Source: Clostridia bacterium (GTDB taxonomy: Bacteria > Bacillota > Clostridia > TANB77 > CAG-508). Taken from it: 64,000 nt of DNA. The stretch spans positions 69,499-133,498 of the forward strand of contig JAFRNM010000004.1 of the NCBI GenBank assembly GCA_017430135.1, given 5' to 3'. Below the pieces are notes generated by a model. That model was given only the letters and a program-made list of their open reading frames with translations. It was not told the DNA's origin and did not search any database. Below are positions 7,336 through 49,673 of the stretch, one piece after another. Numbering within the stretch: the first letter of the stretch is position 1; the number at the start of each line of letters is the position of its first letter. The translations under genes were made by a program, and so were the position numbers.

Positions 7336-7408
7336 CGACTTTTTGGGACACCCTGACTTTTGGGGATGACTTTTTAAGAGTGTCCCAAAAAGTCATCCCC
7401 AAAAGTCG
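7336..7408. repeat. Post-genic palindromic element (family member A), related to the TTTTTGGGACACTCTTAAAA family, with interleaved inverted repeats.
   Basis: CGACTTTTTGGGACACCC / TGACTTTTGGGGATGAC / TTTTTAAGAGTGTCCCAAAAAGTC / ATCCCCAAAAGTCG. Segment 1 pairs with segment 3 and segment 2 with segment 4. It lies immediately 3' of the giant CDS stop. Confidence 0.6.
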
Positions 7409-14043: not shown

Positions 14044-14170
14044 TTTTTGGGACACTCTTAAAATTCCAGACTTTTTGGGACACTCTTAAAAGTCAAGGTT
14101 TGTTTAACCGAACCTTGACTTTTAAGAGTGTCCCAAAAAGTCTGGAATTTTAAGAGTGTCCCCAAAAGTT
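14044..14170. repeat. About 127 bp near-perfect palindrome carrying four copies of the 20-mer TTTTTGGGACACTCTTAAAA, two per arm (family member B).
   Basis: TTTTTGGGACACTCTTAAAA-TTCCAGAC-TTTTTGGGACACTCTTAAAA-GTCAAGGTT-tgtttaaccg-AACCTTGAC-TTTTAAGAGTGTCCCAAAAA-GTCTGGAA-TTTTAAGAGTGTCCCCAAAA. Confidence 0.8.
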
Positions 14171-39283: not shown

Positions 39284-39991
39284 GTGGAAACAAATTATTT
39301 AGAAAACAACTATATTACATTAGTTGGAAAGGTTACAGGAGAAAAAAAATTAAGTCATGAAATTTATGGAGAAAAATTCTACGTGTTTAACTTAGAAATC
39401 CCAAGATTAAGTGGAAATTCAGATATAATTCCAGTTACAATTTCAGAAAGAATTATAAATGATGACACATTAGTTGAAGGAAAAAAATTATTAGTAAAAG
39501 GACAATTTAGATCATACAATAGCTATGTAAATGAAAAAAATAAACTTATATTAACAGTATTTGCAAAAGACATTGTAGAAGTAAAAGAAAATGAAGTTGA
39601 AGAAGAAAATGAAATGGTTAAAAAAGATGTTGTAACTAACGAAGTTGTTCTTATAGGTTACATATGTAAAAAACCAATTTATCGTCAAACACCATTTGGT
39701 AGAGAAATTGCAGATATTTTATTAGCTGTAAACAGAGCTTATAACAAATCTGATTATATCCCTTGTATAGCATGGGGAAGAAATGCTAGATTCTGCCAAA
39801 CAATTGATGTTGGTGTTCAAGTAAAAATAGTAGGTAGAGTTCAATCAAGAACTTACGAGAAGAAATTTGAAGACGGAACAGCAGAAACAAGAGTTGCTTA
39901 TGAAGTTTCAATTGGTAGTTTAGAAGTAATTAACGAAAATAAAGATGAAGCTGAACGTTCAGAACAAACAGAAGAACAAGAAGCTGTATAA
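39284..39991 (+). CDS. Protein with two tandem OB-fold (SSB-like) domains and an acidic C-terminal tail.
   Basis: GTG start after GGGAGGAAATATT. Two repeats with SSB-like beta-strand patterns (ITLVGKVTGE...KLILTVFAKDI and VVLIGYICKKP...VKIVGRVQSRTYE). Acidic tail EAERSEQTEEQEAV with no DDIPF motif. Confidence 0.45.
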   Translation: METNYLENNYITLVGKVTGEKKLSHEIYGEKFYVFNLEIPRLSGNSDIIPVTISERIINDDTLVEGKKLLVKGQFRSYNSYVNEKNKLILTVFAKDIVEVKENEVEEENEMVKKDVVTNEVVLIGYICKKPIYRQTPFGREIADILLAVNRAYNKSDYIPCIAWGRNARFCQTIDVGVQVKIVGRVQSRTYEKKFEDGTAETRVAYEVSIGSLEVINENKDEAERSEQTEEQEAV

Positions 39992-40080
39992 ATAAATGTT
40001 AAAATAAAACTTAAAAATCTAGAGGTAATCTAGATTTTTTAAGTTTTATTTGGTATAATTAAAAAAGTGAAAGGAATTGA

Positions 40081-41725
40081 TATGGAAAAATTAAAAAAAC
40101 TAAGTAATACTTTTAAATTTTCTTTAATTGCAATAGTATTGATTGCAGTATTTTGTATTGCAATTACGCCTGTAACGCTTCAAAATGATACATATTATAC
40201 AATCAAAATTGGCGAACATATTGAAAATAACGGATTAGACATGAAAGACCCATTTTCGTGGCATGATAATTTAGACTATACATACCCACATTGGCTCTAT
40301 GATTTATTGACTTTTAAAATATTCTCTCATTTTGGATTTGAAGGAATATATGTTACCACAGTCATTTTAGCAGTGATATTGGGATTATCATTATATTTTG
40401 TGAGTTCTAAAATTTCAAAAAATAATATTGTTTCATTTTTTGTTACATTTGGAGCGTTGTATTTATTAAAAGACTATATTGCTGCAAGGGCACAGCTGGT
40501 TACATTTATATTGTTTATATGGTCAATTTTTTGTATAGAAAAGTTTTTAGAAAATCGTAAAATAAGATATGGTATTGCTTTATTTGGAATTGCTACTTTA
40601 ATTGCAAATCTGCATGTTGCAGTTTGGCCATTTTTCTTTATACTATTTTTACCATATATTGGAGAGTATATTGTTGCAAGTTTAGCTGACTTTTTAATAT
40701 ACCAAAAATTCAAACATTTTAAATTAAAATTCAAAATAAAACATTTAAAAAATGAAAATAAAATTGAAAAATGCAAAAAACAATTGAGTGAGTTGGAAGA
40801 GAAACTTGATAGAATAAAAATTAAAAGAACTAAAAATTTACAGGAACCATATAAGATAAAATTAGAAAAAAATAAAAATGTAAAATGGTTAATATTAGTG
40901 ATGATAATCTGTGTTATAACAGGATTTTTAACTCCATTAGGTGATACACCATTTACATATTTGGTAAAAACAATGCAAGGAAATACAACCAAAAACATAA
41001 ATGAACATTTACCAATGACACTTTCTGCACAACCAGAGACATTATGCACATTAGTTCTATTTTTAAGTATTTTAATATTCACAAAAACAAAAATAAAACT
41101 TAGAGACCTGTTTATGATAGGGGGATTATGCTATTTGATGCTTTCTAGCAAAAGGCAGGTAACAATGTTTGCACTGGTCGGAACAATAATCTTGAGCAAA
41201 TTGATAGTGGATTTACTTACTATATATGATAAAGAAAAGCTAGAAAAAATAAATAAATTTGTATTAAAACCAATACCTGTAATATTACTATTAACTATTG
41301 TTGGTTGGTGTTCTTGGCAAAATTGCAAGGGAAAATTTGAAGATAAAATAGTAGATGAAAAAACTTATCCTGTACAAGCTAGTAACTACATTTTAGAAAA
41401 TATAGATTTGAGCAAAGCTAGATTTTACAATGAATATAATTATGGAAGCTATTTGCTTTATAGAGGTATTCCTGTGTTTATAGATTCTAGAGCAGATTTA
41501 TATGCACCTGAATTTAGTGGCTTAGAAGATGATATTTTTATGGATTTTATAAATGTTTCAAGTATTGGAACATTTTACGAAGATATTTTTGAAAAATATG
41601 ATATTACACATGCGATTATGTATAAAAATGCGAAAATTAGCATGATTATAGATAAGACACAAGATAGTAATTATAAGAAGATTTATTCGGATGATTATTT
41701 TGTTATTTATGAACGACTTAGATAA
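40081..41725 (+). CDS. Polytopic integral membrane protein (10 or more TM helices) with a C-terminal extracytoplasmic domain. Possibly a lipid-linked glycosyltransferase-like protein.
   Basis: Many hydrophobic helices throughout. An internal coiled-coil loop (KCKKQLSELEEKLDRIKIKR). C-terminal soluble region of about 130 aa. Confidence 0.6.
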
Positions 41726-44524: not shown

Positions 44525-45466
44525 ATGATTAAAGACAATGAAATTAAAGCCCAAGTTTCACCATTTGCAATGAGAGAAGGAGAAATTAAAACTTTTGATG
44601 GAAAAGATGGATATGTATCTATGAACCAAATTGTTCATAAAATAAATATTGGTCATATTACAGATATTCATTTTGCAATTTTAGATTTAGTAAATGAATT
44701 TGAATTTATTACATCAAGACAAATTTATCAATTACTAGAACTAAAAGGAATTGACCCACAATCACAAGATAAGTTAAACAATAAATTAGATAGTTTAGTA
44801 AAATCAAAAATTTTAACAAGATATTACTTTACTTCTGATGAAGGTAAAGGTGTTTATAGAATTTATTGCTTAGAAAAAATGGGAAAATACTTATTAAATT
44901 CTAAAGAAATTGAATGTAAATGGCAACAATCAGATAATACAAAACCGGTTGCAATGATAAAGAAAAGACTTGCTGGAAATCAAATTTTAATTGCCTACAA
45001 AACAAAGGTAAAAGCATTTGAGAGTTTTAAAGTTAAGCCAGTGCTTCAAGCAAAGCAAATTGGAAAACAATTTAAAGCAACAGCTGGTGGTGTTAAACTT
45101 TCTAAAGGCGGAAAATCAATTGATTTTATTTTTGAAGCAGTAAGAAGGGAAGAAGAATGGAAAGAAAAATTAGTAGATAAAATGAAATTATATAAAGATT
45201 TCTATGAAAACTATGTAATTGGGGATTCAGGATATAGCACAATGCCTCAATTGATAATAGTTGCAGAAGATGATAAGCACATGGCAGAATGTTTTAAAGT
45301 AATTGTAACATCTGGAACAGAGATTTCTAAAATTTCATTATTATTTACAACAGATTTACGCCAAAATGAAGTAGAGTTATCAAAGTCTTTGGTTCAATTT
45401 AAATTGGATGAACAAACAAACAAATATAAAGTTGAAAATGTAAGTTTAAAACTTTTAGAAGGCTAA
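44525..45466 (+). CDS. Winged-HTH protein resembling the replication-relaxation (Replic_Relax) family found in plasmids and integrative elements.
   Basis: HFAILDLVNEFEFITSRQIYQLLELKGI...KLDSLVKSKILTRYYF....GVYRIYCLEKMGKYLL matches the Replic_Relax HTH-wing pattern. RBS AAAGGAAG before the ATG. Confidence 0.4.
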   Translation: MIKDNEIKAQVSPFAMREGEIKTFDGKDGYVSMNQIVHKINIGHITDIHFAILDLVNEFEFITSRQIYQLLELKGIDPQSQDKLNNKLDSLVKSKILTRYYFTSDEGKGVYRIYCLEKMGKYLLNSKEIECKWQQSDNTKPVAMIKKRLAGNQILIAYKTKVKAFESFKVKPVLQAKQIGKQFKATAGGVKLSKGGKSIDFIFEAVRREEEWKEKLVDKMKLYKDFYENYVIGDSGYSTMPQLIIVAEDDKHMAECFKVIVTSGTEISKISLLFTTDLRQNEVELSKSLVQFKLDEQTNKYKVENVSLKLLEG

Positions 45467-45480
45467 TGGAGACACTAATT

Positions 45481-45548
45481 GAACAATTTGGGGACACTTC
45501 TAAAAATGTACAAGCTTGTACATTTTTAGAAGTGTCCTCAAATTGTTC
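45481..45548. repeat. 68 bp near-perfect palindrome, family member E of the GGGACACT family (variant core GGGACACTTCTAAAAA).
   Basis: GAACAATTTGGGGACACTTCTAAAAATGTACAAG|CTTGTACATTTTTAGAAGTGTCCTCAAATTGTTC. It lies between the wHTH gene and the AAA ATPase gene. Confidence 0.8.
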
Positions 45549-45582
45549 GGAAGTGTTCTTAATAAAAAAAGAGGGGGCAAAC

Positions 45583-47328
45583 ATGGACAAAAAAGATATT
45601 TTGAAGAGTGTTTATGAAGATTTTTTTGGAATTGAAAAATTAGCAAGAGAAAACGAGAGAATTGCTCAAGAATTAGAGGAAATGAATAGCAAATATAAGC
45701 CACTAAAAGAAGAGGAAATTCCAGAAATAATTGTTAATAAAGCTGAGGAAAATAAAGCAGATGATGGTGCTGAACCTCAAGAAGAATTTGACAAAGATAA
45801 ATACATGAAGGATACCTTTGAAGATATTGATAGTTTGTATATTGACGAAGCGTCTAAAGATTTATTGAAGAGAATTATTGAATACATGAGAAAATATAAC
45901 GAAAAAATTGAAAAACAATACATTTCTTTCAATTTAAAAATTTATTCAAATAATAAAGAGACAATATCAAAAATAGTAAAAATTCTTTTAGATTCTGGAG
46001 ACATATTTAAATATTTAAAAGATGGGGAAGCAGCATATTATTCAATGTATGATATTGAAGAAGTAAAGCAAATTGAGGGGGTATATGCAAGCAAAAATAG
46101 TGTTGTCGTTTTCCAAAATTTTGAAGGTTTTACCGAGAAAGAAGATAGCTTTAAAAATAAGTTTATAAGCAAATTTGACGAGACATTAAGCAAAAATGAA
46201 AATCAAGTTTTAACAATACTTTGTGCTAAAAATAAAGATTTAATAAATGAAGCTTTTTCTAAAAATGATGAGCTTTTACAAAAATATTTTGACTTTGAAA
46301 TTACAGGTATAGAGCCAGATGTGCAAGATGCTTATCAAGATATATTAAATAATTTAGAAGAAAAAATGGAAGTAACAGATGATTTCAAAGTTAAACTTCT
46401 AGACTATATCACAAAATACTATGCTGGTAATAGCTTGCCATACCCAGAATACAGGGATAAATTATGTGGAAAAATATTGTTTACAAAAGAGCTTCCAGAG
46501 GTAGAAAAAGAAAAAACTATGGAGGAAATATTTGAAGAATTAAATGGTTTAGTTGGTCTTGATAAAGTTAAAAATATGCTACATGATTTAGTTGATTTAA
46601 TAGAACTAAAAAATAAAACTAAAGATGATTTAAAAATTAAAAATATAAATCTTCACATGGTATTTTTAGGAAATCCAGGAACAGGTAAAACAACAGTTGC
46701 GAGAATAGTTGCAGAAATGCTTTACAATTTAAAATATATAAAACAAAATAAATTAATTGAAGCTTCAAGCAAAGACTTAGTTGCAGAATATGTAGGACAA
46801 ACAGCACCTAAAACAAATGCAGTAGTTCAAAAAGCATTAGGTGGAGTGCTATTTATAGATGAGGCATACAGCTTGGCGTCAGGACAAGGTCAAGGAAATT
46901 CATTTAATGAAGAAGCAATAGCAACATTAATTCAAGCAATGGAAAATTACAGAGATGACTTAGTTGTAATATTTGCAGGATACACAAGAGAAATGCAAGA
47001 TTTCTTAAATGCAAACTCAGGTATAGTTTCAAGAATTGGGTATACAGTTGAATTTGAAGACTATACACCAGATGAATTAATCCAAATATTTAATCAAATG
47101 ATGGAAAAATCAGGCTTTGTTGTAACAAAAGAAGCGCAAGATAAAGTTAGAGAAATAATAGATGAATATAAAGGAACTCAAAACTTTGGTAATGCACGTT
47201 TTGTAAGAAATATCTATGAAAAATCAATAGTAAAACATGCATCAAATACTAAGGGTAAAAAAGGCAAAAAAGTGCTTAAAACTATTTCAAAAGATGATAT
47301 TAGTACAGAAAATTTATTGAAAATGTAA
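45583..47328 (+). CDS. SpoVK/CbbX-family AAA+ ATPase with a long (~350 aa) N-terminal extension of unknown function.
   Basis: True start is the ATG at 45583 after AAAGAGGGGGCAAAC; the ORF-track start at 45466 runs through the palindrome. C-terminal motifs LVGLDKVKNMLHDLVDLIELKN, Walker A MVFLGNPGTGKTTVARIVAEML and Walker B VLFIDEAYSL are typical of SpoVK. Confidence 0.8.
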   Translation: MDKKDILKSVYEDFFGIEKLARENERIAQELEEMNSKYKPLKEEEIPEIIVNKAEENKADDGAEPQEEFDKDKYMKDTFEDIDSLYIDEASKDLLKRIIEYMRKYNEKIEKQYISFNLKIYSNNKETISKIVKILLDSGDIFKYLKDGEAAYYSMYDIEEVKQIEGVYASKNSVVVFQNFEGFTEKEDSFKNKFISKFDETLSKNENQVLTILCAKNKDLINEAFSKNDELLQKYFDFEITGIEPDVQDAYQDILNNLEEKMEVTDDFKVKLLDYITKYYAGNSLPYPEYRDKLCGKILFTKELPEVEKEKTMEEIFEELNGLVGLDKVKNMLHDLVDLIELKNKTKDDLKIKNINLHMVFLGNPGTGKTTVARIVAEMLYNLKYIKQNKLIEASSKDLVAEYVGQTAPKTNAVVQKALGGVLFIDEAYSLASGQGQGNSFNEEAIATLIQAMENYRDDLVVIFAGYTREMQDFLNANSGIVSRIGYTVEFEDYTPDELIQIFNQMMEKSGFVVTKEAQDKVREIIDEYKGTQNFGNARFVRNIYEKSIVKHASNTKGKKGKKVLKTISKDDISTENLLKM

Positions 47329-47329
47329 C

Positions 47330-47394
47330 TTTTTGGGACACTCCCCAAAAAACTGAAATAAAACCTGTCCTATAAGGCGACAGGTTTTATTTTT
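47330..47394 (+). terminator. Family member F (TTTTTGGGACACTCCCCAAAAAA) followed by an intrinsic terminator.
   Basis: CTTTTTGGGACACTCCCCAAAAAAC, then AAAACCTGTCC-tataagg-CGACAGGTTTTATTTTTG. Confidence 0.7.
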
Positions 47395-47510
47395 GTATAA
47401 AAAAGCGCTTTTGGGGGCTTTAAATATTTGATTTTATATGAAAAATATGGTATAATATTTACATAACACTGTTTTAATCATGGGATAATAATTTGCTATG
47501 ATGAAAACAA

Positions 47511-48665
47511 ATGTCTACAAAGGAGTGTGATATCACAAACAAAAAAGTAAAACCAAAAACCAGAAGATCAAAAACTATAAAGGAGGAATCAGCAGTGCTA
47601 CAACTGCAAGTAAAAGACATTAACATCTGTCGGATTAGTCAAATTCTTGTAAGGCATAATATCAAAGCAAGCATTTCTAATTCGCAAATCACATTGGATG
47701 GTGATATTTCCGATGAATTGCTCACCCAGATTTGTGGTGACTCTGAAATGGAGATAAAATCCATTCAGAACTTTGCTAGCGAAGAGGCGTCAGACTTACT
47801 GATGCCAGTCTTTGTTCAAAAACCTGAATTTGACCTATTGTATCCAAAGGTCAAGTTTGGAGAGTTGTATTTATGTGATTTTGGTGATCCCTATGAACAT
47901 GAGCAGGGATTCATCAGATATGCTATTGTTGTACAAAATGACTTCGGAAATGAAGTTTCTCCTATAACAATAGTTGTACCTTGTACGACTCAAACTAAGA
48001 GAGTTATCCCTTCTAGCTATTATACTACCTTTTCTTATGAGAATATGGTAGACTATGATGCACATAAAGTGGGAACGCGTGAAAATGCCATAAAAATCGA
48101 ACAAATTCGTGCGGTTGATAAAACCAGGCTGAGAAAGTATCTGGGAACGCTGAAAACTGAACTAATGAGCAAGATTATTGAAAAGATAAATGAAACAATA
48201 CGTCTTGACGAAGATTCTAACAATGAGGATTATAAAACAGTCTACATTTCCAGGAAGAAAGAACCTTTAAGGAAACGGAAAGACCTTAATATGGTTCAAA
48301 TTCAGCTATTATCTCTTGTAGATATAAAAAAGCTGATAGAAATTTCCGAAAGTAGCTTTGAGGATGAGATTAAAGTCGAAAAAATCCTAGAGCTGTTCGG
48401 ATTTAATCTCACTCAAAAGGGTGTAAAACTGCTAGCAAAAGCTATTCTTGCTTCTCCCAAAGATGACTATTTTAATCTTGAAACTTTATCTGGAATTGTT
48501 TCACAAGATGAAGGAATTAGTAGGGAGGAAATTAAAAGATTAATAGTTGCAAGAGTTAAAGAAACACTTGGCTTTAGCAAAGCTCCTACAATTGATTTCA
48601 TTAGACTCATTAACGCATTTTTAGCCAAACAGGAGGAAAATAAAGATGAAGAAATTGTTTTTTAA
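47511..48665 (+). CDS. Fusion protein with a central MazF/PemK (EndoA-like) endoribonuclease-toxin domain. An AbrB/MazE-like segment may lie upstream and an HTH-like C-terminal domain downstream.
   Basis: VKFGELYLCDFGDPYEHEQGFIRYAIVVQNDFGNEVSPITIVVPCTTQ...KIEQIRAVDKTRL aligns nearly position for position with B. subtilis EndoA [48 protein letters not shown]...LLEQIRTIDKQRL. A more likely start is the GTG at 47595 after AAAGGAGGAA. GC content and codon usage are clearly above local background. Confidence 0.65.
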   Translation: MSTKECDITNKKVKPKTRRSKTIKEESAVLQLQVKDINICRISQILVRHNIKASISNSQITLDGDISDELLTQICGDSEMEIKSIQNFASEEASDLLMPVFVQKPEFDLLYPKVKFGELYLCDFGDPYEHEQGFIRYAIVVQNDFGNEVSPITIVVPCTTQTKRVIPSSYYTTFSYENMVDYDAHKVGTRENAIKIEQIRAVDKTRLRKYLGTLKTELMSKIIEKINETIRLDEDSNNEDYKTVYISRKKEPLRKRKDLNMVQIQLLSLVDIKKLIEISESSFEDEIKVEKILELFGFNLTQKGVKLLAKAILASPKDDYFNLETLSGIVSQDEGISREEIKRLIVARVKETLGFSKAPTIDFIRLINAFLAKQEENKDEEIVF

Positions 48666-49461
48666 AGTTAGTCAAATAAAAGATGACTCGTTGCTTCCGC
48701 TGATCAAGGAAATCAACAAAATATCATGTAAGATTTGCATTAATCTTAACAAGGGCATGGTTGATGTAGAGAATGTTGAAGAAAACATGCTCGAAACAGT
48801 AATAGGGCTGGTAAATGATTATTTTTCCATTTCTAATGTTGATATTGACAACACCATTGAAGCTGCAACTGAAACAAATGATACTGAAAAGACGACGGCT
48901 TTAGAAGCAGAACTTTCAGAGGAAGATGTTGTGCGTAAAGTTGGAAACGAATATGTTGATAACAAAATAAATACACTTTGTAAGACTGTATATTGGGCTT
49001 TATCCACAGTTCATGCACCTGAGAAGGAATTGAGTGATTACCTTCAAACATGTATAAGCGAAATTTCTCTCAGATACTCAAACAAATCAGGCATAGAGTT
49101 TGAGGTCGGAGACATTGTTGATATTAATTTTGGTTCTGGTCTTCCAGGTGAGGTTTATAGAAACCATATCCATGCAATTGTAGTTAGCTTGGGGAATGAA
49201 GGGTTGGTGTACGTTGTACCCATAACCAAAAATAAAACAGATTTGAAATCTAAATCTTATATATGTTTTGAGGCTCCTGAGGATGCCATTTATTATAATG
49301 ATTATTTCACTGGAGGTGCTGCACTGGCTGACAAGACAAGGTGTATAAGAGTTGAAAGGTTGAATTCTGTTGTTGGTAAAACCAAGAAAGAATTCTTTGA
49401 AAAATTGGTTGATATTATACCAAATGCATTTGATTTTAAGAAAGAATGCATTGATTGGTAG
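48646..49461 (+). CDS. Second MazF/PemK-domain protein, with a C-terminal toxin fold and a ~150 aa N-terminal extension. It is translationally coupled to the preceding gene by a 20 nt overlap.
   Basis: VGDIVDINFGSGLPGEVYRNHIHAIVVSLGNEGLVYVVPITKNK...ADKTRCIRVERLNSVVGK fits the PemK/MazF pattern. GGAGGAAAATAAAG RBS lies inside the upstream gene. Confidence 0.65.
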   Translation: MKKLFFKVSQIKDDSLLPLIKEINKISCKICINLNKGMVDVENVEENMLETVIGLVNDYFSISNVDIDNTIEAATETNDTEKTTALEAELSEEDVVRKVGNEYVDNKINTLCKTVYWALSTVHAPEKELSDYLQTCISEISLRYSNKSGIEFEVGDIVDINFGSGLPGEVYRNHIHAIVVSLGNEGLVYVVPITKNKTDLKSKSYICFEAPEDAIYYNDYFTGGAALADKTRCIRVERLNSVVGKTKKEFFEKLVDIIPNAFDFKKECIDW

Positions 49462-49465
49462 ACAT

Positions 49466-49500
49466 TATCTGGGCAGGATTTATATCCTGCCCACTTTTAA
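49466..49500 (+). terminator. Intrinsic terminator ending the MazF-domain cassette.
   Basis: TCTGGGCAGGAT-ttatat-CCTGCCCA followed by CTTTT. Confidence 0.7.
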
Positions 49501-49673
49501 ATTCATAAATAAAAAATCATCTAATATATTTATATTAGATAATTTTTTTGCTTAAAAACTCTATACAAAAATAAAATTTAGATATATAATGTAAAAAAAT
49601 ACGGACTAAGGAATGTCTTCCAAAATTTTGGAATTCAATATATTTAGTATAAAAATTGAAGGGATGATTATAC

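Follow-up and report, generated by a model that had tools for sequence, protein, structure and literature searches.

The window analysed here is a stretch of 64,000 nucleotides from a Clostridia bacterium, and the subject of this report is a two-gene cassette within it, located just upstream of murE and encoding a MazF-type protein with additional domains (g1) and a degenerate MazF-like partner (g2). The genes correspond to two overlapping open reading frames (ORFs) on the forward strand, 47511..48665 (384 amino acids, aa) and 48646..49461 (271 aa), which share 20 nt. Both ORFs are real and make up a transcription unit of their own with promoter, leader and flanking terminators. The features of the unit are as follows.

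47360..47395, forward strand: terminator-like hairpin of the upstream AAA gene, AAAACCTGTC-loop-GACAGGTTTT followed by a T run, read from the sequence
47428..47456, forward strand: promoter of sigma-A type, TTGATT, 17 nt, TGgTATAAT (extended -10), with 10 of 12 matches plus TG in a promoter scan
47462..47594, forward strand: conserved 5' leader of about 130 nt, delimited by alignments between lineages
47470..47509, forward strand: covarying leader hairpin (RNAalifold), core stem 47477-47483 with 47496-47502, outer arms of 12 nt in this sequence
47595..48665, forward strand: g1, a three-domain protein of 356 aa (the mechanical ORF begins at 47511)
47595..47774, forward strand: N domain of g1, beta-alpha-beta-beta-alpha-beta, ferredoxin/HMA-like (ORF residues 29-88)
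47850..48200, forward strand: MazF/PemK domain of g1, a predicted endoribonuclease (ORF residues 114-230)
48279..48635, forward strand: C-terminal seven-helix domain of g1, with a Spo0A_C-like helix-turn-helix (HTH) fold (ORF residues 257-375)
48646..49461, forward strand: g2, short form, 271 aa, overlapping g1 by 20 nt and translationally coupled to it
48646..48855, forward strand: N domain of g2, beta-alpha-beta-beta-alpha-beta (residues 1-70), from the model of the homologue P0170
49093..49431, forward strand: degenerate MazF-like barrel of g2 (residues 150-262), preceded by a two-helix hairpin at about residues 100-146
49470..49503, forward strand: terminator-like hairpin (49470-49493; stem of 10 bp with 6 G-C pairs) and T-rich tail

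The left edge of the unit is the hairpin of the AAA gene, and the conservation between lineages ends upstream of the -35 box. The right edge is the hairpin at 49470-49503, downstream of which murE has a separate promoter. The start of g1 is almost certainly the GTG at 47595, six bases after a perfect ribosome-binding site (RBS; AAAGGAGGAA), and most g1 relatives are called with a start (MLQLQ...) at the equivalent position. Because this is the most likely start, g1 comprises 356 aa. A 28-aa N-terminal extension from the ATG at 47511 was rejected, as it has no RBS and its frame is not kept in other lineages. The conserved ATG equivalent to 47511 opens a frame of merely 6-13 codons in those lineages, and the stretch behind it is conserved as DNA, not as protein. 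The RBS of g2 is good. Apart from the g1 extension, no forward-strand ORF of at least 20 aa is found at 47329-47594, and there is no antitoxin-sized ORF upstream. The original prediction made for this DNA had thus correctly proposed the ORF pair with its 20-nt overlap, the terminator before murE and the lack of a preceding MazE or ribbon-helix-helix (RHH) antitoxin gene; the large size of the proteins, given as 270-384 aa, also stands, but with g1 at 356 aa from the GTG.

The MazF domain of g1 is well supported. The PemK_toxin profile (PF02452) matches ORF residues 116-228 with an E-value of 6.3e-21 (75.1 bits, cutoff 23.1), and a PemK match is found in all 59 g1 relatives. Residues 86-202 (356-aa numbering) align with B. 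subtilis EndoA/YdcE in a phmmer search against PDB sequences (E 1.3e-12). The alignment takes in the Arg, the Thr and the EQIR..DK.RL loop, and the core of g1 is 34% identical to EndoA. R136, T159 and E197-Q198 of g1 correspond to R25, T48 and E78-Q79 of EndoA; among the 59 relatives the R is conserved in 58, T or S in 59, E in 58 and Q in 52. The MazF/Kid/CcdB barrel fold is present. Judged from these alignments, g1 keeps the full MazF active site and an EndoA-like recognition loop. The alignment with EndoA through EQIRxxDKxRL and the assignment to PF02452 agree with the original prediction. Compared with codon shuffles, the coding sequences of nine lineages were biased neither for nor against UACAU, the EndoA site.

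The AlphaFold model of g1 (59-sequence alignment, mean predicted local distance difference test score, pLDDT, 71) shows three separate domains, the MazF barrel being at ORF residues 118-230. Foldseek searches with whole models were dominated by MazF entries. The N domain has the topology beta-alpha-beta-beta-alpha-beta and contains no CxxC metal site. Like that of g2, it is not of the AbrB or RHH type; the AbrB/MazE-like pattern first proposed for the N-terminus of g1 is not supported. The seven-helix domain (about residues 261-371) has a pLDDT of 84-93 and is the most conserved part of g1. Fold comparison identified in it the six-helix Spo0A_C effector fold with its HTH. The isolated domain gave no match to Pfam Spo0A_C (PF08769) even at E up to 10, and a hidden Markov model (HMM) search with it against PDB sequences found no Spo0A. 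One of the 59 g1 relatives scores for Spo0A_C, at 0.072, and the distant member P0328 combines PemK with Spo0A_C at E 2.3e-5 (24.8 bits, threshold 25). The link of the domain to Spo0A_C is one of fold comparison and distant intermediates only. The Spo0A_C-like C-terminus of the original prediction thus holds as a fold, but its profile match stays below threshold. No phospho-receiver domain (Pfam Response_reg) is found in g1. A profile of the C domain found just 90 clusters among 1.84 billion representative proteins. Most of these are 320-440 aa long with the domain at the C-terminus, and eight of ten atypical ones scanned carry PemK; the domain thus appears to be almost confined to the MazF fusion. 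In P0293, P0298, P0306 and P0330 the N domain is apparently missing, PemK beginning at residue 30-48 and being followed by the C domain, so that the three-domain plan is not universal in the family.

The partner g2 belongs to a family in which most of the 171 relatives are 420-530 aa long, a low-complexity linker being followed in them by one more helical domain, of about 110 aa, at the C-terminus. The g2 of the window clade is a short form that has lost this domain. The AlphaFold model of a long homologue, P0170 (52% identical, mean pLDDT 79), has the order beta-alpha-beta-beta-alpha-beta N domain, two-helix hairpin, beta-barrel and seven-helix C domain. What had been described as a 150-aa unknown domain in g2 hence resolves into an N domain of the same topology as that of g1 and a helical hairpin. 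The barrel of P0170 matches YdcE/MazF in Foldseek with E-values of 1e-4 to 2e-4 and a template modelling (TM) score of 0.73, and 39 of 61 g2 family members have PemK matches at E up to 0.1, the best being 8e-7. The g2 family profile found no MazF among PDB sequences. The MazF fold proposed for g2 is in this way supported by the homologue model and by the family matches, but not by the Pfam score of g2 itself, which is below threshold. At the position of the catalytic Arg the g2 family has V (58 of 61 sequences) and the window sequence I; E-Q is replaced by D-K, while the Thr is kept.

Comparison of the two families gave an hhalign E-value of 8.8e-4 for the barrels and, with a broader profile, 2.6e-4 over 86 columns for the C domains. 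The N domains share their topology in the models, but hhalign found no sequence similarity between them, even with the broader profile. Because the domain order is the same and a weak but consistent similarity is present in two of the three domains, g1 and g2 appear to be old paralogues of one three-domain protein, g2 being without an active site. Both MazF-type folds are, as originally stated, embedded in much larger proteins. The suggestion of a single-chain toxin-antitoxin does not fit, since the genes are always found together and g2 resembles a degenerate g1 paralogue.

The alignments show that the sigma-A-type promoter is kept in all lineages with the pair and that promoter and leader, the latter 120-135 nt long, travel with g1-g2. 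Among lineages with g1 proteins about 55% identical, the mean identity was 0.70 from the -35 box to the start codon, 0.67 in the g1 coding sequence and 0.52 in the 150 nt further upstream. The invariant blocks of the leader are (T/A)ACATAA at the start site, AACAAATGTCTA, AAAGGAG, GTGATA, TTTGTAAC and the RBS AAGGAGGA. An upstream ORF in the leader was ruled out, as insertions and deletions shift the frame between close relatives. Comparison with Rfam gave sub-threshold noise alone and no match to a known RNA family. The only output of Tandem Repeats Finder (TRF) was a trivial 7-nt A-rich run, and a repeat search found no tandem array upstream of g1.

The leader hairpin is paired in 86.5% of cells, with a compensatory change in seven of seven pairs. 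None of 500 shuffles reached this level of pairing, and slid controls gave 27-57%. The hairpin contains several G-U pairs, which favours an RNA structure. The extended -10 is directly repeated, with ATGGTATAATATTT at 47447-47460 and ATGGGATAATAATT at 47480-47493, 33 nt apart, the latter copy forming the 5' arm and loop of the hairpin. The repeat might serve as a pair of operators, a further promoter or a site of sigma-dependent pausing. It is also seen in other lineages, and in L005 the two copies carry the same G variant. In the most divergent relative (L021:1215-1321), with 35% identity, the -10 box and the AACATAA block are still present, and a T run comes after the leader hairpin (AAAGGCAAA / TTTGCCTTT), which thus resembles an attenuator or terminator.

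The G + C (GC) content of the cassette is 34.9%, compared with 29.9% for the window. At third codon positions (GC3) it is 0.30 in both g1 and g2, the top two of 40 genes (mean 0.179, standard deviation 0.042, z about 2.9). The cassette is compositionally distinct, most clearly at third codon positions; the difference has the direction that had been claimed for it, but not the size (38-40% against about 28%). The two genes immediately upstream (window 44525-47328), one Replic_Relax-like (313 aa) and the other for an AAA+ protein of SpoVK/CbbX type, are syntenic in 80%-identical relatives. They are not part of the cassette, because their GC3 is typical of the window. The start of the AAA gene is probably ATG 45583 (578 aa, as in L011 and L012) and not 45466.

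At the 90% cluster level there are 275 g1 relatives; those listed are all about 350-450 aa long and all have PemK. The named sources of the family are uncultured Clostridia from rumen and gut, and the assemblies are of Clostridia only. A scan of genome contigs gave close relatives alone, and a scan of metagenomes gave mostly ordinary MazF genes, one search pattern lying in the MazF core. The g1-g2 pair was intact in every context read, at about ten unrelated chromosomal sites. The overlap is 20 nt in eight of the ten lineages read, and in the other two it is replaced by a gap of 2 nt. The surroundings are the following.

Window clade: AAA gene, pair, murE; stably syntenic within the clade
L005: HTH_3 gene, pair, rpoB
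L014: DUF218, pair, Eco57I-type methylase / HATPase_c_3 / HNH
L097: ABC transporter genes
L100: FtsX gene, pair, histidine kinase
L102: transposase fragment, pair
L103: peptidase M48, pair, TatD
L105: dnaJ, pair, rny

In L102 the pair also adjoins PDDEXK and HNH fragments. The cluster beside the pair in L014 (11595-16514) is restriction-modification-like and possibly a defence island; it encodes a methylase of Eco57I/MmeI type, an HNH nuclease and two further proteins, one of 751 aa with HATPase_c_3 and the other of 203 aa.

In one further lineage (L008:4452-9645, also L009 and L010) the pair is carried by a 5.2-kb element consisting of a large serine recombinase, a 53-aa ORF and g1-g2, the pair being its only cargo. 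The element is flanked by an 11-bp direct repeat, CATCAAGGAGG, and splits a SpoVD-like penicillin-binding protein (PBP) gene of the dcw cluster (PBP_dimer and Transpeptidase, then PASTA), just upstream of murE. Its predicted excision would restore ...GEGGHQGGGVAAP..., rejoining ...GEGGHQGG to GVAAP... and the PASTA domain. From its sequence the element looks like a minimal sporulation-gene intervening element. No full-length relatives were found in IMG/VR, in 50,697 phage records (INPHARED) or in 72,556 plasmids (PLSDB). The pair is a horizontally mobile, self-contained two-gene module.

Taken together these results are best read, at a little short of an even chance, as a toxin-antitoxin-like mobile module in which the pseudo-MazF paralogue g2 controls the HTH-bearing MazF g1. 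With its active site and recognition loop, g1 would be a sequence-specific endoribonuclease. Native MazF barrels dimerise, and g2 might in the same manner form a mixed dimer with g1, either holding it inactive or altering its activity, and would thus act as an antitoxin by subunit substitution. The HTH of g1, together with that of long-form g2, may bind the invariant blocks around the -10 box and in the leader and so autoregulate the operon, by analogy with the antitoxin-toxin complexes of type II systems, while the leader hairpin would add control at the RNA level or serve as a stabiliser. Loss or imbalance of the pair would leave g1 free and lead to growth arrest. Such a release of g1 would account for the persistence of the pair on small mobile elements.

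Several observations weigh against this interpretation. The PemK match of the window g2 (E 1.1e-3, 19.5 bits) is below the cutoff of 23.1. The lost Arg is placed by a profile alignment that is weak, and the residue immediately before it is a conserved His. The N domains are left without explanation. Instead of being operators, the invariant blocks of the leader could function in the RNA. Classical plasmid addiction is not documented, because no plasmid or phage member of the family was found. The gene order, with the putative toxin in first place, is the less common one.

The alternative that survives best, though an unlikely one, is a domesticated, non-toxic pair of regulators, in which the barrels serve for dimerisation or for sensing of RNA or a ligand, the N domains bind a small ligand and the pair acts on its own promoter and perhaps on promoters of the host. 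This would suit the ferredoxin/HMA/ACT-like N domains, the strong conservation of the HTH relative to the rest of g1, the conserved promoter and leader and the stable synteny within the window clade. The catalytic and recognition residues are, however, kept in 58-59 of the 59 g1 relatives, which is unexpected if catalysis is dispensable, and the patchy, context-free distribution and the GC3 anomaly suit a selfish module better.

It is rather improbable that the pair serves in abortive infection or another form of anti-phage defence. In that case g2 and the extra domains of g1 would hold g1 inactive, and phage infection would free it to cut RNA. MazF-type and toxin-antitoxin modules in general can act in phage defence, and this speaks for the proposal, as do the Eco57I-type methylase, HATPase_c_3 and HNH proteins of L014 and the transposase, PDDEXK and HNH fragments of L102. 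Most neighbourhoods consist of housekeeping genes, however, no trigger or sensor domain is recognisable in the proteins, and neither g1 nor g2 is matched by a PADLOC-DB family at E up to 1. The defence module suggested by the original prediction thus gains no support from PADLOC or from the viral, phage and plasmid records, and only two of about ten contexts have defence-like or mobile neighbours. A role in defence is compatible with the toxin-antitoxin reading.

A modulator of sporulation is quite improbable. The Spo0A_C-like domain would in that case bind Spo0A-type targets or compete with Spo0A, and the behaviour of the element, including excision from the SpoVD-like gene, would be tied to the sporulation decision. 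The fold of the g1 C domain and the occurrence of the family in Clostridia assemblies only are consistent with this, as is the serine-recombinase element in the PASTA-domain PBP gene of L008, which is similar to known intervening elements (PMC5595907, PMC4191935). The Pfam Spo0A_C domain is moreover reported to be enriched on mobile elements of gut Firmicutes (bioRxiv 10.1101/214213), which also speaks for it. On the other hand, no 0A box (TGNCGAA) was found on reading the conserved leader (47400-47600), the similarity to Spo0A_C in sequence does not exceed the threshold, most copies lie outside sporulation genes and the conserved MazF active site is left unexplained. A type III-like system is highly improbable. 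In it the leader RNA would be a pseudo-substrate that binds the MazF domain and inhibits it, and the role of g2 would be a different one. The leader, with its covarying hairpin and an ACAUA that is invariant at the 5' end, shows as much conservation as the coding sequence, which would suit this. Tandem RNA repeats are, however, absent upstream, Rfam gives no match and coding regions show neither enrichment nor depletion of UACAU.

Returning to the reading of g2 as controller of g1, a wider claim can be put forward tentatively, and is rather doubtful: that the pair represents a new class of toxin-antitoxin system. In such a class a dead toxin paralogue would replace one subunit of an obligate dimer, the toxin itself would bear a Spo0A_C-type operator-binding HTH, and promoter, structured leader and the two genes would move together and could ride on minimal serine-recombinase elements that split sporulation genes. 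MazF is among the best-studied bacterial toxins and is seen as a small, single-domain protein under the control of a small, labile antitoxin. In g1 a MazF with an apparently intact active site is joined to Spo0A-type DNA-binding and ferredoxin-like domains and is always paired with a putatively dead copy. If the dead copy is the controller, the pair would be a distinct toxin-antitoxin design, with subunit poisoning through a pseudo-enzyme, and a natural case of a toxin regulating its own promoter. The family also shows that effector domains of Spo0A type have been put to use beyond the phosphorelay of sporulation.

Other features of the window lie outside the cassette. A near-perfect palindrome of 68 nt, with 34-nt arms and no spacer, is located between the Replic_Relax-like and AAA genes (window 45481-45548), and because of the palindrome the same peptide seems to be encoded on both strands. 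A dispersed repeat with the motif GAGTGTCCC(C)AAA is found at 7378, 14045-14166 (four copies), 28453, 28481, 30107, 30157, 45487, 45530 and 47331, the last just to the left of the cassette. It often occurs in inverted pairs and is placed outside the long ORFs or at their ends. The motif has 14 matches, a number reached in none of 100 shuffles, compared with 3.2 expected, and is a repetitive extragenic palindromic (REP)-like element of the source genome. The window also encodes a single-stranded DNA-binding protein (SSB; 39284-39991, 235 aa) that is extended at its N-terminus by about 115 aa, and a protein of 552 aa without Pfam match (40067-41725); this gene order is kept in L011 and L012.

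Compared with the Spo0A effector domain (PF08769; PDB 1FC3, 1LQ1), the C domain of g1 is without a receiver domain and without a Pfam match, and it is fused to a nuclease. Known intervening elements in sporulation genes are excised by large serine recombinases, as with skin, SPbeta in spsM and gin in gerE (PMC5595907, PMC4191935, PMC5025042). The element in L008 is similar to these in its serine recombinase, its short direct repeats, the split PBP with PASTA domain and a predicted precise excision that restores the frame. It differs in that g1-g2 is its sole cargo, and the likeness concerns one lineage and not the window. Compared with the type III systems ToxIN and CptIN, the leader is a single-copy 5' untranslated region and not a tandem repeat array processed into antitoxin units. 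MazF adjoining MazF/CcdB-type genes was listed by Makarova et al. 2009, with 43 cases in neighbour counts, but without the g1-g2 architecture. A literature search found no description of a MazF-Spo0A-like fusion or of a MazF paired with a degenerate MazF, in agreement with the statement in the original prediction that the architecture is undescribed.

Among toxin-antitoxin systems that are toxin-first, fused or duplicated are higBA, mqsRA and hicAB and the fused toxins of CapRel or EzeT type, in which toxin and antitoxin have unrelated folds. The g1-g2 pair shares with them an unusual gene order and a control exerted by protein domains rather than by a small classical antitoxin. It differs in that it comprises two chains, the presumed controller being a catalytically dead copy of the toxin fold. 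The closest comparison is with the type II MazEF/PemIK systems (Kis-Kid, EndoAI-EndoA), with which the pair has in common the MazF/PemK core, the catalytic Arg and Thr, the EQIR loop and the organisation as an autonomously transcribed, horizontally mobile operon of two genes. Unlike these systems the unit contains no gene for a MazE/PemI antitoxin of AbrB or RHH type, and its putative toxin gene precedes that of the partner. The toxin is about three times the usual size, 356 aa in three domains compared with about 110 aa in a single domain, and is itself predicted to bear the DNA-binding domain, and its partner is a degenerate MazF paralogue and not a small, labile protein.

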